55,989 nt of DNA, taken from contig JAUNNC010000003.1 of NCBI GenBank assembly GCA_030531585.1, forward strand, positions 1,926-57,914. The letters run 5' to 3'. Origin of the DNA: Eubacteriales bacterium. GTDB lineage: Bacteria; Bacillota; Clostridia; Oscillospirales; Oscillospiraceae. Both the position numbers and the translations under genes were made by a program. The notes under the pieces are model-generated. The model ran no database searches. It saw only the letters and a list, made by a program, of their open reading frames with translations, and was not told the DNA's origin. Of this stretch, positions 18,937 to 34,534 are shown piece after piece (the first letter of the stretch is position 1; each line of letters opens with the position of its first letter).

Positions 18937-19575
18937 ATGAAATACAAGGGGATCATTTTCGATCTGGACGGCGTGATCTGCTCGACGGATCATTACCACT
19001 ATCTGGCCTGGAAGGCGCTGGCCGACCGGCTGGGCGTCTACTTTGACGAGACGATCAACAACCGCCTGCGCGGCGTGTCCCGCATGGCGAGTCTCGACAT
19101 CGTGCTCGAGCGCTCCGAGCGCGCGTACACGCCCGAGGAGAAGGCGGCCTTTGCCGAGGAAAAGAACAGCACCTACCGCGAGCTGCTCAAATGCATGTCC
19201 CCCGCCGACCTCTCCCCGGAGGTCAAAGAGACGCTGGACGCGCTGCGCTCTCGCGGCCTGCTGCTGGGCATCGGCTCCTCGAGCAAAAACACGAAGTTCA
19301 TCCTGAGCCGGATCGGGCTCGGCGACTACTTTGACAAGATCTCCGACGGCACCAACATCACCCGCTCCAAGCCCGACCCCGAGGTCTTTCTCAAGGCTGC
19401 GGAATACCTCGGCCTTAAGCCGTCGGACTGCCTCGTGGTCGAGGACGCGAAGGCCGGGATCGAGGCCGCCTCCGCTGCGGGCATGGACTCCGCCGCGATC
19501 GGCGACGCCGCGGGCTGCGGCCTGGCGACCTACGATCTGGAGCGCTTCTCCGACCTGCTGGCCTGCGTGGACTGA
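18937..19575 (+). CDS. pgmB: Beta-phosphoglucomutase (HAD superfamily)
   Basis: 212 aa. HAD motif I is IFDLDGVI. Also has RGVSRMASL, GIGSSSKN and VVEDAKAGIEAA. Sits directly upstream of a GH65 phosphorylase. Confidence 0.9.
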   Translation: MKYKGIIFDLDGVICSTDHYHYLAWKALADRLGVYFDETINNRLRGVSRMASLDIVLERSERAYTPEEKAAFAEEKNSTYRELLKCMSPADLSPEVKETLDALRSRGLLLGIGSSSKNTKFILSRIGLGDYFDKISDGTNITRSKPDPEVFLKAAEYLGLKPSDCLVVEDAKAGIEAASAAGMDSAAIGDAAGCGLATYDLERFSDLLACVD

Positions 19576-19590
19576 GAGGGGGATGATTCT

Positions 19591-21861
19591 GTGAGCGGCG
19601 CACGTTTTCCCTATGAGCCCTGGACCGTCACCGAGGACGGCTTTCAGGCCGCCTCCCTGCGTGAGAGCGAGTCTGTCTTTGCCCTCGCCAACGGTCTGAT
19701 CGGCATGCGCGGCAACCTGGAGGAGCTCGGCGCGACAGGCGCCGAGAGCATTCAGGGCTGCTATCTCAACGGGGTCTTCGACTCCGAGCCCATCGTCTAC
19801 GGCGAGAGCGCTTACGGCTACGCCAAAAACCACGAGACGATCTGCAGCGTCATGGACGCAAAGAGCCTGTATCTATCCGCCGACGGGGAGAAGCTGGATC
19901 TCGGGCTGTGCGACGTGACGGAGCACCGCCGCGTGCTGGACATGCGCGCAGGGCTGCTGCGGCGCAGCTTCGTGTGGCACGCAAAAAGCGGCTGCACCCT
20001 GCGCGTGGAGACGGAGCGTCTGGTCAGCCTGACGCGGCAGGAGCTCGCCGCGACCCGGCTGCGGGTCCGCTGCGAGGCGGGCGGCTGCACGTTGCGCGCG
20101 GACAGCTTCCTCGCCCCCGCGGTCATCGCACAGGGCGACCCGAACGACCCGCGGGGCGCTTCGGGCAAGGACCGGAGCCTCCGCATCGGCGCGATCCGCG
20201 CGGAGGGGACGCTCCTGCGGATGCGGCAGCTCACCAAGCGCTCGGGCTTCACGATCAACTGCGCCGTGGAACACCGCTGCGCCATCTCCGGCGAGGTCTC
20301 CGTCACGGGCGACCGCGCGGTCTGGACGGCGGAACAGACGCTTCGGGCGGGCGATACGTTCACGCTCGAGCGCAGCATCTGTTACACCGCAACAAGGGAC
20401 GGCGAGGCCGACCGCTGGGACGACACGGCCGCGCAAGCCCGCTCCGCCCCGGCGTTCGACGCCCTCTGCGCCGAGCAGCGCGCCTGTCTCGACGCCTTCT
20501 GGGACCGCGCCGGGATCGACATTGAGGGCGACGACGCTCTGCTGCAGGGGCTGCGCTTCAATCTCTTCCACCTGTTCCAGTCCGTCGGGCGCGACGGCAG
20601 GCGCAACATCGCCGCCAAGGGCCTGACCGGCGAGGGCTACGAGGGCCACACCTTCTGGGACACCGAGGCCTACATCCTGCCGGTGTTCCTGTATACCGAG
20701 CCGACGCTTGCGCGCCGCCTGCTCGAGTACCGCTACGCCACCCTGCCGAAGGCGCGCGAGCGCGCCCGCATCATGGGTCATGCGCGCGGGGCGCTCTTCC
20801 CCTGGCGCAGCATCGACGGCGAGGAGTGCAGCGCCTACTTCCCGGCGGGCACGGCGCAGTACCACATCGACGGCGACGTGGCCCACGCGGTGTGGGAATA
20901 CTGGCAGTCCACCGGGGATCTGGACTTTCTCGCCCGCTGCGGCGCGGAGATCCTGGTCGAGACCGCGCGGCTGTACGCCGATCTGGGCTTCTTCAGCGCG
21001 GAAAAGGGCGGGCGTTTTGTGCTCAACTGTGTGACCGGGCCGGACGAATACAACGTGCTGGTCAACAACAACGTCTACACCAACCGCGTGGCGGAGGAGA
21101 ACTTCCGCAGCGCGGCGGCGGCGCTGGAGCTGCTCGCCGCGCGCTGTCCCGATGAGTACGCGCGCCTGTGCCGGGAGCTGAAGCTGGAGGCGGACGAGCC
21201 GCGGCAGTGGCTTGAGGCAGCGGAGCGCATGTACTATCCCCCGGCCCGCGACGGCGTCATCCCGCAGGACGACGGCTTCCTCGAGCGCAAGCCCTGGCCT
21301 CTCGAGAGCATCCCGAAAGAAAACCACCCCCTGCTGATGCACTACCACGGTCTGGTCATTTACCGGCACATGGTGTGCAAGCAGGCCGACCTGATCCTCG
21401 CCCTGACCCAGTACGGCGAGCACTACACGCTTGAGGAAAAGAAGCGGAACTTCGCCTTCTACGACAGCGTGACGACGCACGATTCCAGCCTTTCGATGGC
21501 GGTGTTCTCCATTCTCGCCAACGAGATCGGCGAGCTGTCGACGGCCTACGACTACTTCATGTCCTCGGCGCGTCTGGACCTGGACGACATGCACCGCAAC
21601 ACCAGGGACGGTCTGCACATGGCCAACATGGCCGGGACCTTCAACTGTGTGACCCGCGGCTTCGGCGGCATGCGCGTGCGGGACGGTGTGCTGTGCTTTG
21701 CGCCGGTCTGTCCGCCCCGGTGGCAGGGCTACGCCTTCCGCGTCCGCTTCCGCGGCCGGACGGTCGAGGTCCGGGTCACGGCCGGCGGCGCGGAATACCG
21801 CCTTCTCTCCGGCGATCCGATCACGATCCGCTCCTTCGGGGAAACGCTTGATTTGACATAA
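19591..21861 (+). CDS. GH65 alpha-glucoside phosphorylase (maltose/kojibiose/nigerose/trehalose phosphorylase family; substrate not assignable)
   Basis: 756 aa with a GTG start after GAGAGGGGG. Family-typical stretches include ESVFALANGLIGMRGNLEE, GLTGEGYEGHTFWDTE and HDSSLS. Confidence 0.9.
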   Translation: MSGARFPYEPWTVTEDGFQAASLRESESVFALANGLIGMRGNLEELGATGAESIQGCYLNGVFDSEPIVYGESAYGYAKNHETICSVMDAKSLYLSADGEKLDLGLCDVTEHRRVLDMRAGLLRRSFVWHAKSGCTLRVETERLVSLTRQELAATRLRVRCEAGGCTLRADSFLAPAVIAQGDPNDPRGASGKDRSLRIGAIRAEGTLLRMRQLTKRSGFTINCAVEHRCAISGEVSVTGDRAVWTAEQTLRAGDTFTLERSICYTATRDGEADRWDDTAAQARSAPAFDALCAEQRACLDAFWDRAGIDIEGDDALLQGLRFNLFHLFQSVGRDGRRNIAAKGLTGEGYEGHTFWDTEAYILPVFLYTEPTLARRLLEYRYATLPKARERARIMGHARGALFPWRSIDGEECSAYFPAGTAQYHIDGDVAHAVWEYWQSTGDLDFLARCGAEILVETARLYADLGFFSAEKGGRFVLNCVTGPDEYNVLVNNNVYTNRVAEENFRSAAAALELLAARCPDEYARLCRELKLEADEPRQWLEAAERMYYPPARDGVIPQDDGFLERKPWPLESIPKENHPLLMHYHGLVIYRHMVCKQADLILALTQYGEHYTLEEKKRNFAFYDSVTTHDSSLSMAVFSILANEIGELSTAYDYFMSSARLDLDDMHRNTRDGLHMANMAGTFNCVTRGFGGMRVRDGVLCFAPVCPPRWQGYAFRVRFRGRTVEVRVTAGGAEYRLLSGDPITIRSFGETLDLT

Positions 21862-22052: not shown

Positions 22053-22823
22053 TCAACCGGCTGGCGGGTCATCTGGCTGAGGCGCAGGCGGCGCGTGTGT
22101 CGGGATCTCCGGCGGAGGAGGCGGAGGAGGCGGGTTCCCGCCGGGAGGCGGCGGGGGAGGCGGCTCCCACCACCATTCATCCCAGGGGCACCAGCAGCCC
22201 CAGTCTTCCTGTACGGTCTCCTCATAGGTCCAGATCTTCGCGACATCCGTATAGACGGGGCCGCCCTCGCCGGTAAAGCAGGCCTGGACCTGACAGCCGC
22301 CCATCCAGGACGGGATACCGCTGAGCGACAGCGTATCGGTATTGCCGCCGGAGACATGGAGTCCGGACACCTTGTCGGCCGCCTCGTATGCAGTCAGAAT
22401 GATGCTGCCGTCCGCGCTGGCGATATACCAGGTCACCGAAGTGGCGTTGGCCGCATGCGCGATGAACAGACAGGAGCCGCCGTAGGGCACAGACTCGCTG
22501 GTCGGGCTCTTGGTGACTCTTACGCGGTTGCTGACGGCGCCCGTGTAGTCCAGCATGGTGTTGAACGGACCCGGCGTCATCTGCGTGGTATTCTGCACGG
22601 TCTGTGCGGCGGTCTGCGCGGTATTCGCAGCGGGCGCCGTCACGGCGCCGGTCTCCTCGTCGACGTGGACGACAGGCACCCCGCAGTAGGGACAGACCCT
22701 GCTGTCCGTGGGGATCTTTCTGCCGCACATCCGGCAATAGAGCACGTCGTTGGCGGCAAAAGCCTGCCCGCCCAACGCGATCATGAGGACAAAAACGAGC
22801 AGCAGACACAGGATACGCTTCAT
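22053..22823 (-). CDS. Secreted/anchored hypothetical protein: signal peptide, C-x2-C...C-x2-C zinc ribbon, beta-rich domain, Trp/Cys cluster, poly-proline tail
   Basis: 256 aa: MKRILCLLLVFVLMIALGGQAFA, then CRMCGRKIPTDSRVCPYCG, then ...DWGCWCPWDEWWWEPPPPPPPGGNPPPPPPPPE. Has its own promoter. Pro-rich coding continues in another frame after the stop (see findings). Confidence 0.7.
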   Translation of the reverse strand: MKRILCLLLVFVLMIALGGQAFAANDVLYCRMCGRKIPTDSRVCPYCGVPVVHVDEETGAVTAPAANTAQTAAQTVQNTTQMTPGPFNTMLDYTGAVSNRVRVTKSPTSESVPYGGSCLFIAHAANATSVTWYIASADGSIILTAYEAADKVSGLHVSGGNTDTLSLSGIPSWMGGCQVQACFTGEGGPVYTDVAKIWTYEETVQEDWGCWCPWDEWWWEPPPPPPPGGNPPPPPPPPEIPTHAPPAPQPDDPPAG

Positions 22824-24130: not shown

Positions 24131-25002
24131 CTACAGTACATACAGCACCCCGTCGCGCTTTTCCTCCTCCGCCGCGGTCCCGGGCCGGAGGCGGGCATAT
24201 TCGGCGGGGTTCATGCCGACGCTCGCGCGGAAGACGCGCGCGAAGTAGTTGGCGTTGGTGAAGCCGCAGGCGTCGGAGACGAACTGTACGCTGTGCCCGC
24301 CCTGCCGCAGCAGGAGCCGCGCATTCTCGATGCGTACCTGATTGAGGTATTTCCCCGGCGTGATGCCCATATATTTGCAAAAGCAGCGCGTCAGATATTC
24401 CTGGCTGACCTCCAGGCGGTCGGCCAGCTCCCCGATCCCGTCGAGGAAGGCGTACTCGCGCCGCAGGATGCCGAGCGCCGCCTCCACCACGAGCGGCAGC
24501 CGGTTCCCGTCCGCGGGTCCGGCGCTCTCCGTGCCGTGCAGATCCATCAAAAGCTGGAAGGCCGCGCCGGAGGCCTCCTGCGCGGACAGCGCGTGTCTGC
24601 CGTGCGCCTCGGTGCGGTGCAGCATCCGTTCGAGGGCGAGGCCCCCGCGTTCAAAAAACAGCCCGGTCCGGCGGCAGTCGGACAGCACCGTGTCGGCCGC
24701 GCTGCCGCAGAGCGTCACGCAGCGCACCGTGCAGGCGCTCGCGGCCGGCAGCGACAGCTCCTCCCCTCCGGGGAAGGCCGCGGCCTGCGGCGCCTCCATC
24801 GTCCAGGCCCGGTCCGCCCAGGCTACCCGCAGGCGTCCCTCCGCCGGACCGAGGATGCGCCAGCGCCCGGCCTCGGCGGGCAGTGTGCGCACGCTCCCCG
24901 CCTCGAGGGAAAAGACAGACGCCTCGCAAACGCCCAGAAGCCCCGAGAGAAAATCTCCCGGAGCTTCCAGTACGGTATTCAGCTCTGTGGGCCGGCGATC
25001 CA

Positions 25003-25003
<1 letters not shown>
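24131..25003 (-). CDS. AraC-family transcriptional regulator
   Basis: About 290 aa. The C-terminal double HTH reads IGELADRLEVSQEYLTRCFCKYMGITPGKYLNQVRIENARLLL...VSDACGFTNANYFARVFRASVGMNPAEY. The ATG overlaps the upstream TGA (TGATG). Confidence 0.9.
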
Positions 25004-26103
<1,100 letters not shown>

Positions 26104-26255
26104 ACTGTTTCCTCCCGATCCGTTATATTTCGTTTTTTCCCGGACAAGGCCGGTGTGATCCCGTAGATTCTGTTTATAAAATAGCACGTTTTCGTCGGCT
26201 TTACAAGCCTACTTTTTTGATTGATAGATAATTTTTTGATCTGTTCGGCTTCCCC

Positions 26256-26284
26256 TTGCAGCGACAGGCGGGGTGTGGTATACT
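26256..26284 (+). promoter_or_regulatory. Promoter TTGCAG-17-TATACT (TG-extended) for the 26352 gene
   Basis: TTGCAG at 26256-26261, a 17-nt spacer ending in TGG, TATACT at 26279-26284. Confidence 0.5.
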
Positions 26285-26351
26285 GATTGACGGACAGGAA
26301 AGATTTGGATTATTCGCACCGCGGGGGACACGCGGCAAGAAGGAGCAGGAC

Positions 26352-28268
26352 ATGTCAGACATTTCCTATCAGCAGGCCCGGCGGCTCGGGCTGAAAGAGG
26401 TCAAGGCCCGCACGGCGCGGCACGAATACCCCTATCTGTGCGCGCTGGAGGAAACGCTTCCGCACCTGAGCTCGCAGAACGAGCAGAAGCTCGGCACCTT
26501 CCGCGTCGATCTCGAGCAGGTCGCGGGCACCTATACCGCCTCCCGGGGCGACGCCTTCTCCGCCTCCTTCTTCCCGCTTCTGGAGGAGTCGAGCGAGTTT
26601 GCCGCCAAGTGGTCGGCGCTGGCCTCCTCGCACCTGAAGGAGGGCATCCGCGATCCCATCCTCGTGGTCGAGTATCTCAACCGTTTTTATGTGGTGGAGG
26701 GGCACAAGCGCGTCTCGGTCCTGCGCTACTTCGGCGCGCTCACGGTGCGCGCGGAGGTCCGCCGTCTGCTCCCCGCGAGAAGTAAAGAGCCCGAGATCCT
26801 CGCCTATTACGAGTTCCTCGATTTCTACCGGGTCACGCAGATCCAGTACATCGTCTTCCGCACCCCGGGGCGCTATCCCGCCCTGCTGGAGCTGCTGTGC
26901 GGCGAGGACAGAAGCGTCTGGGACGAGGACCGGCAGCGCTGCTTTTTCTCCGACGTCACGCGCTTTCGCCGCAGCTTCCGGGATTCCGATCTCCGCGCGA
27001 AGCTGACGCAGGATGAGGCGCTGCTGCGCTATCTGGAGATCTTCGGCTACGACCATCTGCAGGACCGCACGCCCGCCGAGATCAAGGCCGACCTCGCCGC
27101 CATCGCGCCGGAGCTGTTGAGCCAGGCCGGGGACAAGCGGCCGGTTTTGATGACCGATTCCGCAGAGGCGCCGCGCGGTCTGATCCAGCGCATCGTCCAC
27201 CCGCCGCTGCACGATCTGAAGATCGCCTTCCTGCACGACAAGGACCCGGACAGCTCCTTCTGGACCTGGTCGCACGAGCAGGGGCGGCTCGCCGTGCAGG
27301 AGGCGCTGGGCGACCGGGTCGAGACCGTGAGCTGCTTCAACGTCCTGCAGGCTGACCCCGCCCGGACGATACGCGAGCTGGCGGAGCAGGGCTATGGCAT
27401 GATCTTCACGACCACGCCGCGGCTCCTGCGCGCCACGCTGACCGCCGCGGCCGCCTGGCCGGAGATCCGCTTCCTCAACTGCTCGCTCAACGTCAGCCAC
27501 CCGATCGTCCGCAGCTACTACGGGCGCATGTACGAAGCTAAATTTTTGACCGGCGTCATCGCCGGCGCCATGAGCGTTAATTCAAAAATTGGATATATTT
27601 GTAACTACCCGATTTTCAGTATGCCGGCCTCGATTAACGCCTTTGCGCTGGGGGCGAAAATGGTCAATCCCGAGGCGCAGATCTTCCTCGAATGGTCGAC
27701 CGTTGTCGACGCGGACGTGGGCGGACGGCTGGAACGAGACTGCGTGACGGCCGTCTCCGGCAGCGACAGCTTCGAGCCCGCCCGCCGGGATCAGGAGCTC
27801 GGGGTCTTCGCGCTGCGAGACGGGAAACGGGAGAATGTCGCGTACTCCCTTTGGGACTGGGGCAAGCTCTACACGCAGCTGGCGCGCTCGGTGCTCGACG
27901 GCTCCTGGTCGGAGCTGAGCAGCACGAGCGAGGCGGGACAGAGCATCAACTACTTCTGGGGTCTCGCCAGCGGGCTTGTGGACGTGCGCATCCTCCCGGC
28001 GCTGCCGGCGGCGACCGCGCGCCTGGTCACGCTGCTGCGGCGGATGATCGCGGAGGGCTCGCTGCTGCCCTTTGCGGGGCCCGTCTACGATCAGGACGGC
28101 GTCTGCCGCATCCCGGCCGACCGCGTGCTCACGCACGAGGAGATCCTGCACATGAACTGGCTGGTCGACAACGTGGTCGGCTCCCTCCCCCGCTTCGACC
28201 GGCTCAACGAGGAGGCGCGGGAGCTCGTGCGGCTTCAGGGCGTCAGTCTTCCGGAGGGAGATGCGTAA
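26352..28268 (+). CDS. Cytoplasmic fusion protein: N-terminal ParB/sulfiredoxin-like domain plus C-terminal BMP/PnrA (Med)-like ligand-binding domain
   Basis: 638 codons from ATG at 26352 (AAGAAGGAG upstream) with no signal peptide. The N-domain DPILVVEYLNRFYVVEGHKRVSVLRYFGALTVRAEV fits the ParB/Srx core pattern. The C-half (KIAFLHDKDPDSSFW...GYGMIFTTTP...FLNCS...YEAKFLTGVIAGAMSVNSKIGYICNYPIFSMPASINAFALGAKMVNPEAQIFLEW) looks like a BMP-family PBP fold. Confidence 0.75.
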   Translation: MSDISYQQARRLGLKEVKARTARHEYPYLCALEETLPHLSSQNEQKLGTFRVDLEQVAGTYTASRGDAFSASFFPLLEESSEFAAKWSALASSHLKEGIRDPILVVEYLNRFYVVEGHKRVSVLRYFGALTVRAEVRRLLPARSKEPEILAYYEFLDFYRVTQIQYIVFRTPGRYPALLELLCGEDRSVWDEDRQRCFFSDVTRFRRSFRDSDLRAKLTQDEALLRYLEIFGYDHLQDRTPAEIKADLAAIAPELLSQAGDKRPVLMTDSAEAPRGLIQRIVHPPLHDLKIAFLHDKDPDSSFWTWSHEQGRLAVQEALGDRVETVSCFNVLQADPARTIRELAEQGYGMIFTTTPRLLRATLTAAAAWPEIRFLNCSLNVSHPIVRSYYGRMYEAKFLTGVIAGAMSVNSKIGYICNYPIFSMPASINAFALGAKMVNPEAQIFLEWSTVVDADVGGRLERDCVTAVSGSDSFEPARRDQELGVFALRDGKRENVAYSLWDWGKLYTQLARSVLDGSWSELSSTSEAGQSINYFWGLASGLVDVRILPALPAATARLVTLLRRMIAEGSLLPFAGPVYDQDGVCRIPADRVLTHEEILHMNWLVDNVVGSLPRFDRLNEEARELVRLQGVSLPEGDA

Positions 28269-28332: not shown

Positions 28333-28367
28333 AAAAACGAGGCAGGCTCAGCGCCTGCCTCGTTTTG
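28333..28367. terminator. Bidirectional terminator hairpin between convergent genes
   Basis: AAAAACGAGGCAGGC-TCAGC-GCCTGCCTCGTTTT. It overlaps the last codons of the 28348..29157 gene. Confidence 0.7.
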
Positions 28368-29157
28368 GATTCTTTTTCGGTTTTTCCTCCGGGAAGAGGT
28401 CGTCGCGGCGGTTCCAGTCGGGATCGGAGAAGCTGCTCTCCTGCACCATCAGGTCCTCCTCGCGGTGCTCCTCGTCGGTGAAGATCGCGCCCTCGGCCTG
28501 GGCGCTTTTCTTTTTTGTCAGCAGCTCGGGACTGAGCTTGCGGAAGGCCTGGCGAAAGAAGAAGCTCTGCAGGTAGGCCACGACCCCGAAGCCGCAGACC
28601 GCCCACAGATAGGCGAAGACCTCGACCGCCGCCGGGTTCATGATGAAGCTGACGTACAGCGCTGCGATCAGCAGACCCAGTGCCGCGAGCGTCCAGGGCA
28701 GGGCCCCGACGCTCAGCAGCCAGGCGTTGCGCAGGGTATTGCGCACCGTGTTCACATAGCGCGCCTGCAGCGGGAAGATGTAGATAAAGCCGAACAGGAA
28801 CAGCAGCGCCAGCAGGTAAAAGGTCACCTGATAGACCCGGCCGTAGGCCCCGCCGAGGCTCTGCGTCACGAACCAGTAGGCGGTCAGGAAGCCGATCATC
28901 AGCAGGCAGATCAGCCACAGGCAGGTCGCCTGCTTGAATTCCGCCCGGAAGGCCCGCCAGAAGTCGCGGAAGATCAGGCCGTCGTCCTTCTCCTCGTCCT
29001 CGATCAGCTCCTGCATGCAGGAGAACAGCGCCGTCAGCGAGGCGCCGATCGTAAAGACCGGCAGGCAGAACAGGACAAACATCACGTTGCAGATCACGAT
29101 GTCCGCCAGCTTGCTCAGCGCGGTCATCATCGGTCCGTCCGGGTCAAAGAATCTCAT
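28348..29157 (-). CDS. YesL-like (DUF624) membrane protein, typical accessory gene of sugar ABC loci
   Basis: 269 aa. The N-terminus MRFFDPDGPMMTALSKLADIVICNVMFVLFCLPVFTIGAS is characteristic of DUF624. Has six hydrophobic helices and an acidic C-terminal tail. Confidence 0.8.
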   Translation of the reverse strand: MRFFDPDGPMMTALSKLADIVICNVMFVLFCLPVFTIGASLTALFSCMQELIEDEEKDDGLIFRDFWRAFRAEFKQATCLWLICLLMIGFLTAYWFVTQSLGGAYGRVYQVTFYLLALLFLFGFIYIFPLQARYVNTVRNTLRNAWLLSVGALPWTLAALGLLIAALYVSFIMNPAAVEVFAYLWAVCGFGVVAYLQSFFFRQAFRKLSPELLTKKKSAQAEGAIFTDEEHREEDLMVQESSFSDPDWNRRDDLFPEEKPKKNPKRGRR

Positions 29158-29180
29158 GGGTTTTCCCTCCGATAGAACAG

Positions 29181-29208
29181 AAAGGGCGCCGTGAAAGCGG
29201 CGCCCTTT
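29181..29208 (-). terminator. Intra-locus hairpin/terminator after the permease genes
   Basis: AAGGGCGCCG-(loop)-CGGCGCCCTT, followed on the minus strand by TCTGTTCT. The yesL-like RBS follows. Confidence 0.5.
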
Positions 29209-29229
29209 TGGATGTTGGATCGCAGACGC

Positions 29230-30090
29230 TTACTTGATGGCGCCCTGAACCATGCCGTCCATGATGTGCTTCTGTGCGATCAGGAAGATCACGATCATCG
29301 GGATCATGGCGAGCAGAGCGGCCGTCAGGATCATATCCCAGGACTTCACGAACGAGCCGACGAAGGCCTGCACCGCGACGGGCAGGGTCTTGTTCGGGTT
29401 GTTCTGGCCCAGCAGGATGGAGGGGAGCAGGTAGTCGTTCCAGATCCACATGCCGTTGAGGATCGTGACGGTCACGATCGTGGGCTTGAGCAGCGGGAAG
29501 ATGATGCGGAAGAAGGTGCCCTCGGGCGAGCAGCCGTCGATGGCCGCGGCCTCCTCCAGCTCATAGGGGATGCCCTTGATGAAGCCGGTGAGGATGAACA
29601 CCGTCATGGCGCCGCCGAAGCCGCAGTAGGCGAAGATCAGGCCCGGCAGGGTGCCGTTCATGCCGAGACCCACGAATTTGCCGACCTCACGGAAGGTGGC
29701 GATCAGCGGGAGCATGACGACCTGGAAGGGGATGATCATCGAGGAGATGAAGACCATGTAGATCACGGTGGACCAGCGGGTCTTGTTGCGGCAGATGACC
29801 CACGCGGCCATGCCGCCGAAGACGGCCAGCAGCACCAGCGAAATGATCGTCACCAGCGTGGAGGAGCCGAAGGCGTGCCAGAACACGAAGTTCTTGTTGT
29901 TGATAACGGAGCTCGCGTTGGAGGCAAACTGCTTGAAGCTTGCACCCGCGAAGGAGATCGGGTTGGAGACGATGGCGCTCTGCGTCTTGAAGGAGTTGAG
30001 CACCACCAGCGCGAAGGGGAACAGGATGTAGGCAGCGAGGAGAATCGCGACGATCATCAGCGTGACCATACGGGACGTCTTCATTTTCAT
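29230..30090 (-). CDS. Carbohydrate ABC transporter permease (MalG-like)
   Basis: 286 aa. The EAA loop is ELEEAAAIDGCSPEGTFFRIIFPLLKP. Has six TM helices. Confidence 0.92.
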   Translation of the reverse strand: MKMKTSRMVTLMIVAILLAAYILFPFALVVLNSFKTQSAIVSNPISFAGASFKQFASNASSVINNKNFVFWHAFGSSTLVTIISLVLLAVFGGMAAWVICRNKTRWSTVIYMVFISSMIIPFQVVMLPLIATFREVGKFVGLGMNGTLPGLIFAYCGFGGAMTVFILTGFIKGIPYELEEAAAIDGCSPEGTFFRIIFPLLKPTIVTVTILNGMWIWNDYLLPSILLGQNNPNKTLPVAVQAFVGSFVKSWDMILTAALLAMIPMIVIFLIAQKHIMDGMVQGAIK

Positions 30091-31172
30091 TACATCTCGA
30101 CCTCCCTCTTATTGGAGATACGCACCTGGATCAGCGAGACGCAGGCCAGGATGATAAAGAACAGGATCGCCTTCGCCTGCGCATAGCCGAACTGGTCACG
30201 CGCAAAGGCGGTGTTGTAGATGTTCAGTGCGATCATCTGCGTGCCGTTGGACAGGCGCTGGCCCATGAAGCCGCGCACCGTGCCGACGCCGTTGGTCAAG
30301 GCCAGGTTGACGTCGAACTGCTTGAAGGCGGAGGTCAGGGTCAGGAAGGTGCAGATGGTGAAGGTGGCGGCGATCATGGGGATCTTGATCTGGAACAGGG
30401 TCTTCATGGCGTCGGCCCCGTCGATCTGGGCAGCCTCCAGCACGTCCTTCGGGACGGTGGCGAGACCGTTGATGTAGATCAGCATGATGTAGCCTGCGTA
30501 CTGCCAGACATACACGATGATGATGGCCATAAAGGCGGTGTTCGTGCTGGCAAGCCAGGAGTGCGGCGAATTCGTGATCGCCGTCAGCACGTTGGAGAAA
30601 ACGAACTGCCAGATATAGCCCAGAACGATGCCGCCGATCAGGTTCGGCAGGAAGTAGGCGGCGCGGAAGAAGCCCACGCCCTTGAGCTTGGTGGTGCACA
30701 GCAGGGCCAGCAGGAAGGCGACCAGGTTCACCAGGATCATGTTGACGACCACGAACAGAACGGTCAGCAGCAGGGACCAGATGAACGCCGGGTCCTTGAA
30801 CATGGCGCCGTAGTTTTCAAAGCCCACCATTTTGGTGTAGGAGACGCCGTTCCAGTCGGTAAAGGAGTAGAAGATACCGACAAACATCGGGATGATGACG
30901 GTGACGGCGAAGGTGAAGAGCAGGGGGAAGAGGAAGATGAAGTTGATGATGGCGCGGTGGTGCATGACCGTGGGGATGTAGTACAGGCCAGCCAGGCAGA
31001 GCAGAGCGCCGAGAACCAGAAACAGGCCGCGCAGCGCGATCTTTGCCGAGCCCATGTTGACCACGAGGTAGGTCTTGGAGAAGTCCATCCACAAGGCCGC
31101 GATCAGCAGAACGGCGCCCAGAATCAGAAGTGTAAGCGAGAGGATCTTTTTGCCGGAGGTGTTTTCATTCAT
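30090..31172 (-). CDS. Carbohydrate ABC transporter permease (MalF-like, with ~70-aa two-helix N-terminal extension)
   Basis: 360 aa. The EAA loop is VLEAAQIDGADAMKTLFQIKIPM. Overlaps the next permease by 1 nt. Confidence 0.9.
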   Translation of the reverse strand: MNENTSGKKILSLTLLILGAVLLIAALWMDFSKTYLVVNMGSAKIALRGLFLVLGALLCLAGLYYIPTVMHHRAIINFIFLFPLLFTFAVTVIIPMFVGIFYSFTDWNGVSYTKMVGFENYGAMFKDPAFIWSLLLTVLFVVVNMILVNLVAFLLALLCTTKLKGVGFFRAAYFLPNLIGGIVLGYIWQFVFSNVLTAITNSPHSWLASTNTAFMAIIIVYVWQYAGYIMLIYINGLATVPKDVLEAAQIDGADAMKTLFQIKIPMIAATFTICTFLTLTSAFKQFDVNLALTNGVGTVRGFMGQRLSNGTQMIALNIYNTAFARDQFGYAQAKAILFFIILACVSLIQVRISNKREVEM

Positions 31173-31217
31173 ATCTCGGATCGCTCCCTTTCCAGTAGCT
31201 ATTCTCCCAAAGGAACA

Positions 31218-31241
31218 GGGGCGGCGACGAGTCGCCGCCCC
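31218..31241 (-). other. GC-rich hairpin between the binding-protein and permease genes (possible mRNA stabiliser or partial terminator)
   Basis: GGGGCGGCGAC-GA-GTCGCCGCCCC. There is no U-tract on the minus strand. Confidence 0.45.
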
Positions 31242-31266
31242 TTCTGAAGTACGTTATTGACGCGGA

Positions 31267-32598
31267 TTACTTGACAGCCTGGGGAATGGTGGCGACCATG
31301 TCGTCGATGAAGCCCTGGGTGTCGATGGTGCCCATGGCGTAATCCTGGAAGATGGCGCCGGTGAAGTCCTCAGCCATGTTGGCGGGCTGCTCGAGGAAGT
31401 GCCAGCCGGAGGTCTTGCCGCGGGCGGTGAAGTCGGCAACCGTGGGAGCGAACGGGTCGTTCGCGACGACGGTGCAGCTCTTGTACGGGCTGTTCAGACC
31501 GGCTTCCTGAACGAGGATCTGCTGGCCGTCGGGGCCGGCGAGCCACTGCAGGAAGGCCTCGGCCTCAGCCACATTGCCCTCGTTGTAGACGGCCCAGTGG
31601 GAGGGAGGATTGGTCAGGATGGTGTCGATGCCCTCGATGAAGGCGTAGGGGATCATGCCGCACTCGAAGTTGCCGGCCGCTGCGTACAGATCCTTGTACT
31701 GGTCGGTCAGGGAGGCGCCGATCCAGGAGCCCTGGGTCACGAACGCGTACTTGCCGGAGGCGAAGCCGGAGACCTGCAGGTCATAGTTGCCGGAGACGAG
31801 CAGGGCGGGATCGGAGTACTGGTTGAACAGGCCGACCATCTCGGCAAACGGGGTGAAGCGGTCGAGGTCGAGCTTGCCCTCGTTCATCATGAGGTCGAAG
31901 TAGGTGTCGTCGTCACGGGCGAGGCCGGCGTCCAGATAGTTGGAGAACATGTGGTTGCCGGTGGACCAGTACAGCTCCTTGGCGTTGGCGCAGTAGCCGA
32001 CGACGGCGGTGATGCCGAGCTCGTCCTTCATGGAGTCGAGCTTCTCGAAGGCGGCCTTCATGGACGCGGGTCCGGTGACGGAGGCGGGATCAATGCCGGC
32101 CTTGTCGAGGATGCTCTTGTTGTAGGCCAGACCGATGGCCTCGGTGGTGTAGGGGAAGCCGATGACGGCGCCGGTGTCGTCGACGAACTCAGCCTCGGTG
32201 TCGGAGACCCATGCCTGGTCGGACATGTCGACAACCTTGCCGACCCAGTTGGAGAAGTCGGGCGTGCCCTCGCAGGTGAAGATGTCGGGCATGTTGCCGG
32301 CCTGGTAGCGCTGCTTCAGCTCAGACTGAAGGTCGACGCCGCCGCCGACGGAGTTGACCTCGACATGCTTGCCGGTCTGTTCCTCATAGACCTTGGCAGC
32401 GTGGTCGAGCGCGCCGGCGATCTCGATCTTGCCGTTGAAGAGGGTGATGCCGTTCTTCGCGGAGGTGTCGGCAGCGGGGGCAGCGTCGCCGCCGGAGGCG
32501 GGAGCGGCCGCAGGAGCCGCGGATTCGGTGCTGACGCCGCAGGCCGCCAGAGCGACGATCATGACGAGCGCCAGCACGAGCGCAAGTGTTTTCTTCAT
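31267..32598 (-). CDS. Sugar ABC transporter substrate-binding lipoprotein
   Basis: 443 aa. The lipobox is VALAAC-G, followed by an Ala/Pro/Gly-rich linker and then a family-1 SBP-like body. Confidence 0.9.
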   Translation of the reverse strand: MKKTLALVLALVMIVALAACGVSTESAAPAAAPASGGDAAPAADTSAKNGITLFNGKIEIAGALDHAAKVYEEQTGKHVEVNSVGGGVDLQSELKQRYQAGNMPDIFTCEGTPDFSNWVGKVVDMSDQAWVSDTEAEFVDDTGAVIGFPYTTEAIGLAYNKSILDKAGIDPASVTGPASMKAAFEKLDSMKDELGITAVVGYCANAKELYWSTGNHMFSNYLDAGLARDDDTYFDLMMNEGKLDLDRFTPFAEMVGLFNQYSDPALLVSGNYDLQVSGFASGKYAFVTQGSWIGASLTDQYKDLYAAAGNFECGMIPYAFIEGIDTILTNPPSHWAVYNEGNVAEAEAFLQWLAGPDGQQILVQEAGLNSPYKSCTVVANDPFAPTVADFTARGKTSGWHFLEQPANMAEDFTGAIFQDYAMGTIDTQGFIDDMVATIPQAVK

Positions 32599-32778
32599 GC
32601 TTTTTTCCTCACTTTTTCATAGTTTTTTCGGCTGGGAAAACCCCATCCTTACTGACATAGTTTAGCATTCCATCCCCGCAAAATCAATGATTTTTGTGCC
32701 ATTCGCCGATTCTGGGCGTTTTGTACGAAGCATACTTTCAAAAATTATAGCTTTTGACCAATTGACAGCTCGCCCGCT

Positions 32779-32810
32779 TTTGTCCACGCAACACTTGCAA
32801 GTTTGTCCAC
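32779..32810 (+). promoter_or_regulatory. Exact direct repeat TTTGTCCAC x2 (23 bp start to start) flanking or overlapping the GH13 promoter -35; candidate operator
   Basis: Copies are at 32779-32787 and 32802-32810. Looser TTTTGT.C-like copies lie further upstream (about 32692, 32718 and 32750). Confidence 0.35.
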
Positions 32811-32823
32811 ACTCCTGTACAAT
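32795..32823 (+). promoter_or_regulatory. Promoter TTGCAA-17-TACAAT for the GH13 gene
   Basis: TTGCAA at 32795-32800, a 17-nt spacer ending in TG, TACAAT at 32818-32823. Lies about 35 nt upstream of the ATG. Confidence 0.6.
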
Positions 32824-32857
32824 ACAGAAAACGGTCTGTTGACAGGAGGGACCCCTT

Positions 32858-34534
32858 ATGCAGCACAAATGGTGGCACGGTAAAACCGCATATCAGATTT
32901 ATCCGAAGAGCTTCTGCGACTCGAACGGCGACGGGATCGGCGACCTGCGGGGCGTGATCTCGAAGCTAGACTACCTGCGGGAGCTCGGCGTGGAGATCGT
33001 CTGGCTCTCCCCCGTCTACCCCTCGCCCATGGCCGATCAGGGCTACGACATCTCCGACTACTACAATATCGATCCGCGCTTCGGCACCATGGACGACATG
33101 GACGAGCTGATCGCAAAGGCGCGCGAGCGCGGGATCTCCATCGTGATGGATCTGGTCGTCAACCACTGCTCGGACGAGCACGATTGGTTCCGCAGGGCCT
33201 GCGAGGACCCGGACGGGCCTTACGGGCAGTTCTTCTACATCCGGGATTGGCATGAGGGCGAGCCCCTCCCCTGCAACTGGCGCAGCTACTTCGGCGGCCC
33301 CTGCTGGGAAGTGCTGCCCGGCCACCCGGACAAGATCTACTTCCACGCCTTCCACAAGAAGCAGCCCGACCTCAACTGGGAAAACCCCGCGCTGCGCCGG
33401 GAAATCTACAAGATGATCAACTGGTGGCTGGACCGGGGACTCGGCGGCTTTCGCATCGACGCGATCATCAACATCAAGAAGCTGCTCCCCTTCCGCGACT
33501 TCCCCGCCGACCGGGACGACGGTCTGTGCGCTATCCAGCGGATGCTGGCCGAGACCGAGGGCGTGAACGTCTTCCTGCGCGAGATGGCCGACGAGACCTT
33601 CTGCCTCTACGACGCCTTCTCCGTGGGCGAGGTCTTCAATGAGAAGACCGAGGACCTGCCGCTGATCATCGGGGACGACGGCTACTTCTCCAGCATGTTC
33701 GACTTCTCGGAGCACCTGCTCGGTCTGGACCGGCGCGGCTGGCATCTTTCGCATCTGCCGACGGCGGAGGAATACAAGCAGGCCGCCTTCGCCGCCCAGG
33801 CGCGCGTCGCCGACATCGGCTTTCTCTCCAACATCATCGAAAACCACGATGAGCCGCGCGGCGTCTCCCACTATCCGCCGCAGGGCGAGCGCTCCGACGC
33901 GGCCAAGAAGCTGCTCGGCGGACTCAACTTCCTGCTGCGCGGCCTGCCCTTCCTCTATCAGGGGCAGGAGCTCGGCATGGAGAACCGCACGGGCTGGACG
34001 CTCGGGGAGTTTGACGACATCAACACCCTCGACCAGTACGAGGTGGCCCTGCGCGCGGGCTTCACGCCGGAGCAGGCGCTGCGGGCGGTCTCGCTCTACT
34101 CGCGCGACAACGCCCGCACGCCCTTCCAGTGGGACGCCACTCCCGGCGCGGGCTTCACGACCGGCACGCCCTGGCTGCCGCTCAACCCGAATTACCGGGA
34201 GCTCAACCTCGCCGCCCAGCGCGGGCGCGAGGGCTCGGTCTACGAGTTCTACCGCAGCCTGATCGCCCTGCGAAAAAGCGGGGAATACGGCGAGACCCTG
34301 GTCTACGGCGAGACCGTGCCGTGGCTCCCGGAGCAGCGCAACCTGATGGCCTATCTGCGCCGGGGCGAGAAGACGGTCCTCGTGGCGGGGAATTTCCAGG
34401 GCGAGCCGCAGGACATGCGCCTGCCCGCGCCGCTGAAAAAGCTGCTGCTGAACAATCTGGAGACGCTGGACGCGGAGAGCGGGACGCTGCATCTGGCCCC
34501 GTGGCAGCTCATCGTGGCCGAGGCGGAGGGGTGA
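32858..34534 (+). CDS. GH13 alpha-glucosidase / oligo-1,6-glucosidase family enzyme
   Basis: 558 aa. Has WWHGKTAYQIYPKSFCDSNGDGIGDLRG, DLVVNHCSDEH, GGFRIDAI and ENHDEPRG (GH13 conserved regions I, II and IV). Confidence 0.95.
   Translation: MQHKWWHGKTAYQIYPKSFCDSNGDGIGDLRGVISKLDYLRELGVEIVWLSPVYPSPMADQGYDISDYYNIDPRFGTMDDMDELIAKARERGISIVMDLVVNHCSDEHDWFRRACEDPDGPYGQFFYIRDWHEGEPLPCNWRSYFGGPCWEVLPGHPDKIYFHAFHKKQPDLNWENPALRREIYKMINWWLDRGLGGFRIDAIINIKKLLPFRDFPADRDDGLCAIQRMLAETEGVNVFLREMADETFCLYDAFSVGEVFNEKTEDLPLIIGDDGYFSSMFDFSEHLLGLDRRGWHLSHLPTAEEYKQAAFAAQARVADIGFLSNIIENHDEPRGVSHYPPQGERSDAAKKLLGGLNFLLRGLPFLYQGQELGMENRTGWTLGEFDDINTLDQYEVALRAGFTPEQALRAVSLYSRDNARTPFQWDATPGAGFTTGTPWLPLNPNYRELNLAAQRGREGSVYEFYRSLIALRKSGEYGETLVYGETVPWLPEQRNLMAYLRRGEKTVLVAGNFQGEPQDMRLPAPLKKLLLNNLETLDAESGTLHLAPWQLIVAEAEG

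Follow-up and report, generated by a model that had tools for sequence, protein, structure and literature searches.

A cytoplasmic BMP-domain protein of gut Clostridia with a predicted ParB/sulfiredoxin-fold module and a metallophosphoesterase as genetic partner

Named proteins resembling the product of one gene in a 55,989-nucleotide stretch of DNA from an Eubacteriales bacterium (the window) are, without exception, called "BMP family ABC transporter substrate-binding protein." The gene raises the question of what such a protein does if it stays inside the cell. An earlier note on this DNA, made from the sequence alone, had proposed a cytoplasmic small-molecule sensor coupled to a ParB-type nucleoside triphosphate (NTP) switch or nuclease, encoded within a sugar ABC transporter cassette. 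Both folds involved are already known; new here are the ParB/sulfiredoxin (Srx)-BMP family and its pairing with a phosphoesterase.

A soluble cytoplasmic protein of two modules

The product of positions 26352 to 28268 is a soluble cytoplasmic two-module protein with a flexible linker between the modules. The gene and its parts are as follows.

26340..26345, + strand: ribosome-binding site AAGGAG, read from the sequence, 6 nt 5' of ATG 26352
26352..28268, + strand: whole gene (end includes the stop codon), by translation a 638-aa cytoplasmic fusion protein of a predicted ParB/Srx module and a BMP domain
26352..26471, + strand: residues 1-40, conserved N-terminal helix and PYL..LE segment opening the N-terminal module (N-module), from AlphaFold helix 2-22 and conserved residues
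26472..26786, + strand: residues 41-145, predicted ParB/Srx-fold core and NTP pocket, from AlphaFold (pLDDT >93), Foldseek, and sub-threshold sequence matches
26787..27125, + strand: residues 146-258, all-helical acidic subdomain of the N-module, with helices 147-256 at high pLDDT
27126..27215, + strand: residues 259-288, flexible inter-domain linker, low pLDDT in both models
27216..28211, + strand: residues 289-620, BMP/PnrA-type (PBP type I) ligand-binding domain of the AtzT/Brucella BMP subgroup, from Pfam, profile, and Foldseek matches

The 638-aa reading frame and its strong ribosome-binding site stand as first described, and homology searches returned full-length homologues with 93% identity as well as thousands of relatives. 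No signal peptide, lipobox, or membrane segment was found in the window protein or in about 150 family representatives. The maximum 19-residue Kyte-Doolittle value is 1.26 over the whole protein (pI 5.7) and -0.38 in residues 1-40, in keeping with the earlier remark that the N terminus has no hydrophobic segment. The sole in-frame upstream start, TTG 26256, would add only a hydrophilic peptide, and a hydrophilic N terminus of the form M..Y..A.K.G.K...PYLP.L is common to the representatives, the exceptions being a few truncated or chimeric fragments. The proposed cytoplasmic location is upheld by these results: no cleavable signal or lipobox arises from an upstream start, and the homologues are not plain extracellular BMP lipoproteins.

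Residues 1-258 are predicted to form a divergent ParB/Srx-fold domain with an acidic helical subdomain. This assignment rests on predicted structure and sub-threshold matches, since Pfam and NCBIfam gave no significant match to residues 1-290. The ParB_N model PF02195 returned nothing for the window protein even at an E value of ≤10, and it was the commonest Pfam match among relatives, in each case below threshold (5 of 55, best E value 0.002). With the AlphaFold model of the N-module (pLDDT 90.4, pTM 0.83) as query, every listed Foldseek match in the PDB with a probability of at least 0.8 was to a ParB/Srx-fold protein (ParB, Noc, Srx, PadC, KorB, SerK, or SbnI), at modest E values (2e-4 to 0.1) and low global TM-scores. 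The Noc match had an E value of 2.3e-4. Compact, low-rmsd matches to the core came from Arabidopsis thaliana Srx (6ky4; TM(target) 0.68, rmsd 3.5 Å over 90 columns) and SbnI (5ujd; rmsd 2.3 Å over 91 columns, probability 1.00), and SerK (5x0k) and related entries were also among the matches. A search of the viral library BFVD again gave ParB/Srx matches, with Gp57 of Bacillus phage G as the best non-family structural match (E value 2.9e-8). On the predicted structure, then, the N-terminal domain does not fold as something unrelated to ParB/Srx.

The ParB/Srx core that the earlier note had placed at about residues 95-150 was recovered in both AlphaFold models, in which DSSP gives strands at 103-108 and 111-116, a helix at 118-126, and a further strand at 131-139, in the strand-strand-GxxR-helix-strand order of the fold; the ParB/Srx motif as a whole, DPILVVEYLNRFYVVEGHKRVSVLRYFGALTVRAEV, spans residues 101-136. 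Invariant residues of the core are G59, R65, E82, K86, E107, E116-G117-x-K119-R120, and R138, and the charged positions conserved in at least 80% of members within residues 41-145 all lie inside it. Ahead of the core, Y6, A9, and L32 are invariant and K/R11 and K/R15 are conserved in the family alignment. Conservation of the GxxR motif was clear, with G117 and R120 invariant in 91 members and in 55 diverse members. In weak sequence matches, the invariant E-G-[N/H]-K-R comes to lie over G-E-R-R of ParB and G-C-H-R of sulfiredoxin. An hhalign comparison of the family with a Spo0J sequence (E value 5.8e-4) sets G-H-K-R over G-E-R-R and ends at residue 139, and an Srx profile alignment sets EGnKR over SGCHR and K86 over the Lys of the Srx "K-V" segment; in human Srx this Lys (Lys61) contacts ATP.

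The predicted fold of residues 41-145, approximately, is thus like that of ParB/Spo0J, Noc, KorB, and PadC. The Gly and second Arg of ParB Box II (the P-motif) are kept as G117 and R120, whereas the first Arg is Lys in the family. The position held by the catalytic Glu in canonical ParB and by the catalytic Cys in Srx (F-G-G-C-H-R) is taken by H118 in the window protein, and most family members have N there, so neither known chemistry is simply transferable. In contrast to ParB, the fusion family has no recognizable Box III, helix-turn-helix (HTH), C-terminal dimerization domain, ParA partner, or parS context. Srx and SerK/SbnI offer a likeness of another kind, being non-DNA-binding cytoplasmic enzymes of the ParB/Srx fold that use ATP or ADP. 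However, their families carry no BMP fusion, the C-terminal domains of SerK and SbnI are unmatched (Foldseek aligns only 91-112 columns of 5ujd and 5x0k), and the fusion gene has no peroxiredoxin, siderophore, or cysteine biosynthesis context. The N-module probably binds an NTP.

The helical subdomain carries a net charge of -6 in the window protein and -3.6 as a family mean, with no position that is Lys or Arg in at least 80% of members and no basic residue among the positions conserved as charged at that level. Residues 146-258 had no Pfam or PDB sequence match and no recognizable HTH, no HTH family occurred among the Pfam matches of 55 members, and the family alignment has no Box III (ENxxR)-like conserved Arg after residue 139. 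The acidic subdomain, devoid of conserved basic residues, argues against DNA binding, and the regulator option of the earlier note is unlikely in so far as it means a DNA-binding regulator. The linker that follows has pLDDT values mostly of 43-64 in both models, below 50 over most of residues 266-285 in the N-module model, and varies in length across the family.

Residues 289-620 are a complete BMP/PnrA "Venus-flytrap" domain of the purine-base-binding AtzT/Brucella subgroup, and on this point the earlier assignment of the C-terminal 330 or so residues, the Pfam model, the PDB profile search, and Foldseek all agree. Bmp (PF02608) matches residues 291-450 above its gathering score (E value 1.9e-21). 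The family profile finds AtzT (6pi5) and Brucella melitensis BMP (3s99), the best matches in both sequence and structure, over residues 287-615 (E values of about 1e-49 to 4e-49, 25-28% identity), and Foldseek gives 2.7e-23 for 6pii, with TM(target) values of 0.74-0.79; for AtzT and Brucella BMP together they span 0.72-0.79. AtzT and Brucella BMP are periplasmic binding proteins, secreted components of ABC importers, whereas the fusion protein has neither a signal peptide nor a cognate BMP-type transporter. Med of Bacillus subtilis, a membrane-anchored lipoprotein with a signaling role, also has the BMP fold (B. halodurans 2hqb, Foldseek 2e-10) and a role outside classical transport, but it has no ParB/Srx module and its similarity is far weaker than that of AtzT.

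The structure of AtzT was solved with guanine bound, in a purine pocket formed by Tyr45, Ser97, the Phe98 N-H, Glu165, Trp194, Asn218, and Asn220 (PMC6834077). Mapped onto these residues by alignment rather than by structure, the family keeps two of about seven contacts: the stacking aromatic Tyr45 corresponds to W304 and Ser97 to T355 (T/S in the family). Phe98 corresponds to P356, and Pro cannot provide a backbone N-H; Glu165 corresponds to Ser/Gly423, which is S423 in the window protein. For the loops with Trp194 and Asn218/220, the family shows either deletion or variation. Family members agree closely with one another in the pocket region (W304, H308, R392, E395, N429, and others). With a pocket remodeled to this extent, any ligand class is a guess.

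A large family paired with a small metallophosphoesterase

The protein belongs to a large, undescribed family of gut Clostridia that is mis-annotated as ABC transporter binding proteins. A database search gave more than 4,400 matches to the protein, a search of species-representative genomes gave at least 599, and the architecture is conserved in at least about 600 species genomes. The N-module alone gave 842 clusters at 50% identity, nearly all of 620-690 aa. Lachnospiraceae, Oscillospiraceae, and Faecalibacterium are represented by loci that were read, and Collinsella by database names only. Stand-alone N-modules lacking the BMP domain occur in three related species known from metagenome-assembled genomes (MAGs; loci L010 to L012).

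The conserved genetic partner across the family is a small metallophosphoesterase, often translationally coupled. In 73 of 84 loci the fusion gene is followed immediately, on its own strand, by a gene for a phosphoesterase of about 200 aa, the two frequently overlapping by 4 nt; in L007 and L009 the phosphoesterase gene lies upstream, and two of the BMP-less N-modules (L011 and L012) are also trailed by it. The enzyme keeps a near-complete set of catalytic motifs (GD, GNHD, H, and GHxH). Within four genes on either side of 77 analyzable loci the phosphoesterase was the sole recurrent neighbor (58 loci on a first pass), the next commonest neighbor cluster reaching 8 loci. These surroundings are otherwise ordinary chromosomal genes (smc, ftsY, ilvA, citrate synthase, and sugar genes), with no recurrent mobile or defense genes among the annotated neighbor clusters, and genes for a BMP-type permease or ATPase are not a repeated feature of the 84 loci. 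Cultured gut isolates that have the pair include Blautia intestinalis, Coprococcus ammoniilyticus, Faecalibacterium sp. An122, and Pseudoflavonifractor sp. An85.

The window itself departs from this pattern. A tblastn search gave no trace of the phosphoesterase in its 56 kb, the space between the fusion gene and the convergent DUF624 gene is too small to hold it, and the adjacent phosphoesterase is also absent in L001, L002, and L005. In the related locus L003 (54% identity), the same sugar cassette holds the phosphoesterase as well as msmK-araC, which shows that the adjacent partner was lost from the window's subclade; the proposed partnership would have to be an unlinked one in the window organism, if it exists there at all.

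The sugar cassette and a shared regulatory region

The features around the gene are as follows.

24131..25006, - strand: AraC-family regulator, co-directional with msmK (Pfam HTH_18 / HTH_AraC)
25003..26103, - strand: msmK, divergent neighbor, MalK-type ABC ATPase of 366 aa from ATG 26103 (Pfam ABC_tran, OB_MalK, and TOBE_2)
26215..26240, no strand assigned: direct repeat TTTTGAT-N12-TTTTGAT in the intergenic region between msmK and the gene, a candidate AraC-type operator
26256..26284, + strand: putative promoter TTGCAG-17 nt-TGgTATACT with extended -10, read by eye
28334..28366, both directions: bidirectional intrinsic terminator with a 14-bp stem, between the gene and a convergent DUF624 gene (terminator scan)

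Gene annotation confirmed that the gene is divergent from msmK-araC and lies in a sugar ABC cassette, with DUF624, two permeases, a binding protein, and a GH13 enzyme nearby; the msmK start was revised to ATG 26103 from the ribosome-binding site GGGAGG and 366-aa homologues. An SBP_bac_1 binding protein belonging to the cassette's ABC system is encoded at 31267-32598. The gene shares a conserved regulatory region with the msmK-araC pair of this alpha-glucoside cassette. The pair adjoins the homologues in L001 to L005, and the repeat, which is unique in the window and had no matches in 100 shuffles, is conserved as a block in L001, L002, L005, and L003. The terminator makes the gene monocistronic in the window.

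The claim that the gene has its own promoter fared less evenly. An extended -10 is visible by eye, and a counterpart, TTGCC(C/T)-N17-TGcTATAAT, occupies the equivalent intergenic part in three of four aligned related loci (L001, L002, and L005), with no such promoter in L003. A consensus scan, however, called no promoter on the + strand, the -35 hexamer TTGCAG matching at only 3 of 6 positions.

As the setting of the gene in general, the sugar cassette did not hold up: it is specific to the lineage, confined to relatives of at least 53% identity (L001 to L005), and sugar or msmK context is missing from about 75 of the 84 loci. One independent msmK adjacency was seen, in L059, where a co-directional msmK immediately precedes the gene, behind a malK-I RNA. 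The partner that genomic context identifies across the family is the metallophosphoesterase, absent from the window, and not the sugar cassette.

Possible functions of the fusion protein

The best explanation of the whole, to which we give a probability of roughly 45%, is a ligand-regulated, putative NTP-binding module to which the BMP domain has been added as a sensor. The ParB/Srx core would bind an NTP through invariant K86, K119-R120, R65, and R138, accompanied by invariant acidic E82, E107, and E116. This core would be the functional heart of the protein, because the N-module exists without a BMP domain and is then still paired with the phosphoesterase. In most species the N-module and phosphoesterase would work jointly on a substrate or signal that is phosphorylated or of nucleotide type. 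The BMP domain would be an added allosteric sensor, closing around a small, probably planar heterocyclic metabolite and thereby tuning NTP binding, turnover, or phosphotransfer. On this reading the protein would have no part in transport and would not be a DNA-binding ParB. Coupling of a sensor to a putative NTP switch can reasonably be proposed; the view of the BMP domain as dispensable is based on the three related MAG species with stand-alone N-modules.

A similar logic, a ParB-fold NTP module joined to a small-molecule sensor, is found in the archaeal ParB-CTPase-CBS fusions, which are described as chromosomal and passed on by vertical inheritance (Kaljevic et al., PNAS 2025, PMC12704722). 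There the sensor is a CBS domain and the lineage a different one, whereas the family described here has a BMP/PBP-I sensor. That survey was seeded with PF02195 and listed HTH, HNH, methyltransferase, and CBS fusions; its seed does not detect the fusion family, which is therefore invisible to that model, and its accessible text and supplements contain neither "Bmp"/PF02608 nor "Metallophos"/PF12850. The same source reports that NTP specificity cannot be predicted reliably from sequence analysis or with AlphaFold 3.

A further proposal, possible but doubtful, is that the N-module and coupled metallophosphoesterase form a new two-enzyme small-molecule module gated by the BMP domain, with the window lineage rewired to the msmK-araC region. 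If so, the pair would produce, process, or reset a small molecule that is phosphorylated or derived from a nucleotide, and in the window lineage the fusion protein would be coupled to alpha-glucoside use. The N-module could instead be a small-molecule phosphotransferase that moves phosphate from ATP or ADP to a metabolite held by the BMP domain, in the manner of SerK/SbnI or sulfiredoxin, the BMP domain being the substrate-binding part of a kinase rather than a sensor and the phosphoesterase acting on the product or a related ester. We consider this unlikely. The structural matches to SerK and SbnI, the presence of more invariant acids (E116 before G117, plus E82 and E107) than NTP binding needs, the conserved BMP pocket region, and translational coupling to an enzyme all speak for it, but the SerK/SbnI match is confined to the core of about 90-110 residues, a long disordered linker separates the modules, and a kinase encoded in an operon with a phosphoesterase would make a futile pair if both acted on one and the same bond. 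A BMP domain serving as substrate holder is also hard to reconcile with N-modules that pair with the phosphoesterase in its absence (L011 and L012).

A role in DNA binding or defense is harder still to accommodate. VirB- and KorB-type ParB-fold proteins are known regulators, and a ligand-responsive ParB-like protein of LacI/GalR logic might control msmK and the alpha-glucoside cassette through the shared intergenic region, as the divergence from msmK-araC, the repeat kept in the subclade, the msmK adjacency in L059, and Foldseek alignments to ParB, Noc, and KorB that span 220-250 columns, into the helical region, would suggest. This is quite improbable, given the acidity of the helical subdomain and of the protein as a whole and the lack of any HTH family among 55 members; the long alignments have an rmsd of 14-19 Å and TM-scores of 0.2-0.3, most loci have no sugar context, the AraC regulator already present explains the repeat, and the partner across the family is an enzyme, not a target operon. 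The nuclease option of the earlier note found no support, and a ParB-like nuclease or conflict/defense effector, triggered by a nucleobase- or nucleoside-type signal at the BMP domain, is very improbable. ParB-fold domains are described as common in mobile elements and defense systems (PMC12704722), Gp57 is a phage protein, and PDC-S10, a candidate model of PADLOC, finds the partner phosphoesterase (E value 1.9e-16); however, PADLOC had no match for the window protein or a stand-alone N-module, no second nuclease motif is present, and the neighbors are ordinary chromosomal genes. The database reading, an extracytoplasmic substrate-binding protein of a nucleoside or sugar ABC transporter, draws on a genuine BMP fold and, in the window, on adjoining ABC transporter genes. 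It is essentially refuted by the lack of an export signal in the protein and its relatives, by a cytoplasmic-type domain of 287 residues ahead of the BMP domain, and by the lack of cognate transporter genes, the adjacent ABC system having its own binding protein and the phosphoesterase being the only recurrent neighbor.

The database name is accordingly a systematic annotation error, since the protein it denotes cannot be exported. The error extends to no fewer than several hundred species genomes and to metagenomic proteins in their thousands, and it affects inferences about transporters and nucleoside uptake in gut microbiome models. On the preferred reading, that of a ligand-regulated NTP-binding module, the family would be a new branch of the ParB fold, bacterial, chromosomal, and non-DNA-binding, in which an NTP module is joined to a sensor of the periplasmic-binding-protein type. 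Its conserved two-gene unit is a concrete place to seek an unrecognized nucleotide-linked activity or signal, and the fusion would clearly exemplify how, in nature, the fold of a transporter binding protein can be taken over for sensing in the cytoplasm by proteins other than the LacI/GalR family.

The gene and its cytoplasmic product

The target protein comprises an N-terminal module (N-module, residues 1-258), a linker (259-288), and a BMP domain (about 289-620), and its gene is accompanied by the following features:

26352-28268 (+), intact open reading frame, 638 codons plus stop
6 nt 5' of the target ATG (+), ribosome-binding site AAGGAG, read from sequence
26256-26284 (+), putative promoter TTGCAG-17 nt-TGgTATACT, with a plausible extended -10
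28334-28366, bidirectional terminator directly 3' of the gene, a hairpin with a 14-bp stem and T-runs on both strands

The reading frame and ribosome-binding site described in the earlier note were both recovered. The putative promoter is plausible as one of the extended -10 type, but a consensus promoter scan did not list the site because its -35 matches at only 3 of 6 positions. A clear TTGCC(C/T)-N17-TGcTATAAT promoter lies in the same part of the intergenic region in three loci of related family members (L001, L002, and L005), and none like it was found in the corresponding part of a fourth, L003. Given the terminator, the target gene is monocistronic in the window. The terminator also overlaps the 3' end of a convergent DUF624 gene (28348-29157, -).

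The protein (pI 5.7) is cytoplasmic. Over 19-residue windows its hydrophobicity reaches a maximum of 1.26 across the whole protein and of -0.38 within the first 40 residues, in agreement with the proposed lack of an N-terminal hydrophobic segment, and the single upstream in-frame start adds a hydrophilic peptide with no export signal. A hydrophilic N-terminus is common to approximately 150 family representatives, which indicates that the start is right and that the family as a whole is without signal peptides.

A ParB/Srx-fold module joined to a BMP domain

The resemblance of the C-terminal region to BMP proteins was confirmed, and a complete domain is present. Pfam Bmp (PF02608) aligns with residues 291-450 (E 1.9e-21), and a profile of 36 homologues compared with the PDB finds AtzT (6pi5, E 3e-49) and a Brucella BMP protein (3s99, E 5e-49) over residues 287-615. 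With the full-length AlphaFold model (pLDDT 82.7), Foldseek matched the same two proteins at 2.7e-23 (TM on target, 0.72-0.79), followed by the nucleoside-binding proteins PnrA, BmpD, and Lbp, the riboflavin-binding protein RfuA, and Med; sugar-binding periplasmic proteins were reached only at about 1e-4. AtzT contacts guanine through Tyr45, Ser97, the backbone N-H of Phe98, Glu165, Trp194, Asn218, and Asn220 (PMC6834077), and these positions were carried onto the target through a HMMER alignment.

AtzT guanine contacts and their counterparts in the target (window protein numbering)
Tyr45: W304, kept; aromatic, invariant in close homologues and nearly invariant family-wide
Ser97: T355, kept; most family members have Ser here
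Phe98 backbone N-H: P356, lost; Pro without N-H
Glu165: S423, lost; family members have Gly or Ser here
Trp194: V452; in a loop that varies or is deleted
Asn218 and Asn220: near 476 and absent, respectively; variable or deleted loop

AtzT and the Brucella protein are the nearest relatives of the domain. Within the family, the pocket-forming regions of BMP proteins are strongly conserved, which makes a defined ligand likely, but it is probably not guanine bound in the manner of AtzT. A link to B6 through the family protein P0128, which matches a "B6 ABC transporter BMP" model at E 2e-6 (model cut-off, 400 bits), was rejected as generic BMP similarity.

For the N-module, no Pfam match was obtained with the E cut-off relaxed to 10, NCBIfam yielded nothing beyond a faint resemblance to RepB (E 0.099), and the best match of the family profile among PDB sequences was sulfiredoxin (E 0.23), the rest being noise; the fold assignment therefore relies on AlphaFold and Foldseek. 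The full-length Foldseek search was dominated by the BMP domain and uninformative for this region, and a separate model of residues 1-290 was built with 90 diverse homologues (pLDDT 90.4, pTM 0.83). It opens with an N-terminal helix, continues with a beta-rich core (strands 103-108 and 111-116, helix 118-126, strand 131-139) and an all-helical subdomain at 147-256, and ends in a disordered linker. Its only confident Foldseek matches in the PDB were ParB/Srx-fold proteins, among them Noc (2.3e-4), ParB-CTPγS, PadC, KorB, pNOB8 ParB, the sulfiredoxins of Arabidopsis thaliana and human (TM on target, 0.68 and about 0.5; rmsd 3.5 Å over 90-98 columns), and the free serine kinases SerK and SbnI (rmsd 2.3 Å over 91 columns). 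The earlier note's ParB/Srx call is therefore right at the level of fold. In the viral library BFVD a family member came first, then Gp57 of Bacillus phage G, then dozens of ParB/Srx proteins. Gp57 (G3MBC7, 202 aa; 2.9e-8) is the closest structural match in BFVD from outside the family. BFVD also holds a family member deposited as a "Podoviridae sp." protein (A0A8S5LUW4), probably bacterial DNA in a viral bin.

The sequence evidence for this fold is weak but coherent. ParB_N was the commonest Pfam match among 55 members (5/55; best E 0.002), and in the sulfiredoxin profile alignment P75, K86, G98, and E-G-n-K-R of the target stand opposite P, K, G, and S-G-C-H-R. With hhalign, V-V-E-G-H-K-R falls on I-V-A-G-E-R-R of Spo0J (E 5.8e-4, residues 87-139), and K86 lies opposite Lys61 of human sulfiredoxin, a residue that contacts ATP. 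At a mean family identity of 31%, G59, R65, P75, E82, F83, K86, G98, E107, E116, G117, R120, S122, and P141 are invariant, and all conserved charged positions of the N-module are in the core. The phosphate-binding positions of the fold are thus retained, whereas the residues that define the chemistry of ParB (the Glu of GERR) and of sulfiredoxin (Cys) are replaced by N or H.

A conserved phosphoesterase partner and its absence from the window

The full-length search returned more than 4,400 relatives, and every one that bears a name is labeled either "BMP family ABC transporter substrate-binding protein" or "basic membrane lipoprotein Med." Searched alone against 1.84 billion cluster representatives, the N-module found 842 clusters; of those that are complete, nearly all measure 620-690 aa and so share the architecture of the target. 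A one-genome-per-species scan, in which at least 599 members were confirmed among the 600 matches listed, yielded 80 loci, mostly from Lachnospiraceae and Oscillospiraceae (including Faecalibacterium, Blautia, Coprococcus, and Dorea); Collinsella members are present among the database names. These 80 loci and 4 from contig look-ups were analyzed together.

Immediately downstream on the same strand, 73 of the 84 loci encode a metallophosphoesterase of about 200 aa (Metallophos/Metallophos_2, weakly YfcE-like), its adjacency in several high-GC loci having been placed by tblastn. The commonest gap is -4 nt (16/55 adjacent pairs in a first-pass analysis). Species with both genes include Blautia intestinalis 27-44 (L080), Coprococcus ammoniilyticus H1_22 (L072), and Faecalibacterium sp. 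An122 (L047). The arrangement differs in L007 and L009, where the partner is just upstream of the family gene, in L028, where it is 2.2 kb downstream, and in L026, where it directly follows a frameshifted copy. L004 and L069 run into contig edges, and only L001, L002, L005, L021, and L050 lack the partner. It has invariant GD, GNHD, H, and GHxH motifs, and motif I reads D-x-E rather than the usual D-x-H (L063 2262-2870 and 31 homologues, phosphoesterase alignment A4). A G-C-x-C motif is also conserved in the same alignment. The closest solved relatives of the partner are MPPED2 and lariat-debranching enzyme.

In three Oscillospiraceae/Firmicutes species known from metagenome-assembled genomes, the N-module occurs alone (about 275 aa), lacking the BMP domain:

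L010, 6986-7810
L011, 3822-4682
L012, 6902-7813

The partner follows directly with a 4-nt overlap in L011 and L012 (open reading frame calls) and was placed after the module in L010 by tblastn. Because BMP-less modules also pair with the phosphoesterase, the N-module and phosphoesterase are the conserved functional unit, and the BMP domain is an addition in most members. Among 160 representatives, none had the N-module fused to the phosphoesterase.

In the window, the target lies in a maltose/alpha-glucoside phosphorolytic utilization locus (18937-21861 and 28348-34534) with genes for a GH65 phosphorylase, a HAD protein (beta-phosphoglucomutase-like), GH13, a binding protein (SBP_bac_1), two permeases, and DUF624. 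This sugar cassette was rejected as the functional context of the family: tblastn of the 84 loci with msmK, araC, DUF624, the permeases, the binding protein, GH13, and GH65 recovered linkage only in L001-L005, whose family members are 53% identical or more, and with msmK in L059. The last (Pseudoflavonifractor sp. An85), with an msmK-like gene followed directly, on the same strand, by the family member and its phosphoesterase, is a second, independent msmK adjacency.

An Rfam scan of the window and six loci found no cis-regulatory RNA 5' of the target gene. A riboswitch or leader as a functional clue was rejected, Rfam giving only a malK-I RNA (RF03069, 113 bits; L059 5615-5802) upstream of the msmK-like gene and a TwoAYGGAY RNA (RF01731, 88 bits; L013 6369-6532, -). 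The latter is on the strand opposite to a family member, some 470 nt upstream of it.

No homologue of the partner was found within the 56-kb window, and the terminator leaves no room for one after the target. In L003 (54% identity), the family gene is divergent from araC-msmK and is followed by the phosphoesterase and then by DUF624, GH77, two permeases, a binding protein, and an amylase. The cassette is that of the window but retains the partner, so the adjacent phosphoesterase was lost in the window lineage. The target keeps all family-invariant residues and has 93%-identical homologues, and it is therefore under selection without an adjacent partner. One further feature bears on its expression:

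26215-26240, direct repeat TTTTGAT-N12-TTTTGAT in the msmK/target intergenic region, unique in the window

A set of 100 shuffles gave 0 matches to the repeat, which is conserved just upstream of the -35 of the gene in L001, L002, L005, and L003. It is probably an AraC-type operator that belongs to the neighboring AraC regulator and serves both divergent promoters, which would place the target under sugar-responsive control in the window lineage. Nearby, the longest msmK frame starts at GTG 26187, but the real start is probably ATG 26103 (-), which has the ribosome-binding site GGGAGG and gives 366 aa, the length of the msmK homologues that adjoin family members in L001-L004. Between the GH65 gene and araC lies a 256-aa open reading frame (22053-22823, -) with an N-terminal zinc ribbon (Zn_Ribbon_1/DZR) and no other recognizable domain.

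Proposed mechanism and alternatives

The reading that we favor, at a probability of about 0.45, is that the ParB/Srx core would bind an NTP, that the N-module and the phosphoesterase would together act on a molecule that is phosphorylated or of nucleotide type, and that the BMP domain, which some species do without and which is attached through a flexible linker, would serve as an allosteric sensor. In the window lineage, the module would act without an adjacent partner and be expressed from the msmK-araC regulatory region. The likeness to SerK and sulfiredoxin could instead reflect a phosphotransferase acting on the BMP-bound ligand, which we consider unlikely since BMP-less forms still pair with the phosphoesterase. 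A ParB-like transcription regulator, as the matches to ParB and Noc might suggest, is harder still to credit: the long alignments to these proteins have rmsd values of 14-19 Å, the helical subdomain (146-258) is acidic (mean net charge, -3.6; -6 in the window protein) with no position at least 80% Lys or Arg, no helix-turn-helix family appeared among the Pfam matches of 55 family members, and the sugar context is not family-wide. The target is probably not a DNA-binding ParB.

Evidence for a DNA-binding head or a role in vitamin B6 metabolism from P0160, a family protein in which the N-module is joined to a MocR/PdxR-type aminotransferase, was also rejected. In P0160, 46 residues of BMP sequence still precede the switch, and the protein is a singleton from one contig of 4 kb. 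Its siblings P0137 (a singleton on a single short contig) and P0152 run at their ends into different, unrelated sequences. We regard the three as probable assembly chimeras, which could confuse surveys of domain architecture.

A nuclease or defense effector would accord with the match of the phosphoesterase (L063 2262-2870) to the candidate-defense model PDC-S10 (E 1.9e-16), but this was the only PADLOC match, neither the target nor the stand-alone N-module being recognized, and the chromosomal neighbors are ordinary; we regard such a role as very improbable. The transport role implied by the database names is scarcely credible for a protein with no export signal and no cognate transporter.

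Among known systems, those nearest to the target are ParB-CTPase fold proteins, sulfiredoxin and SerK/SbnI, AtzT and the Brucella BMP protein, and, in their logic, archaeal ParB-CBS fusions. Our literature search found no paper combining ParB with BMP/PnrA. A 2025 survey of ParB-CTPase fold fusions seeded with PF02195 (PMC12704722) lists HTH, HNH, UPF0020, methyltransferase, DUF3850, and CBS partners, and "Bmp," PF02608, "phosphoesterase," and "Metallophos" are absent from the text and supplements searched. The folds are known, but the architecture, the use of a BMP domain in the cytoplasm, and the conserved phosphoesterase partner appear to be undescribed. The architecture would surprise specialists in ParB-fold or binding proteins and is immediately testable.
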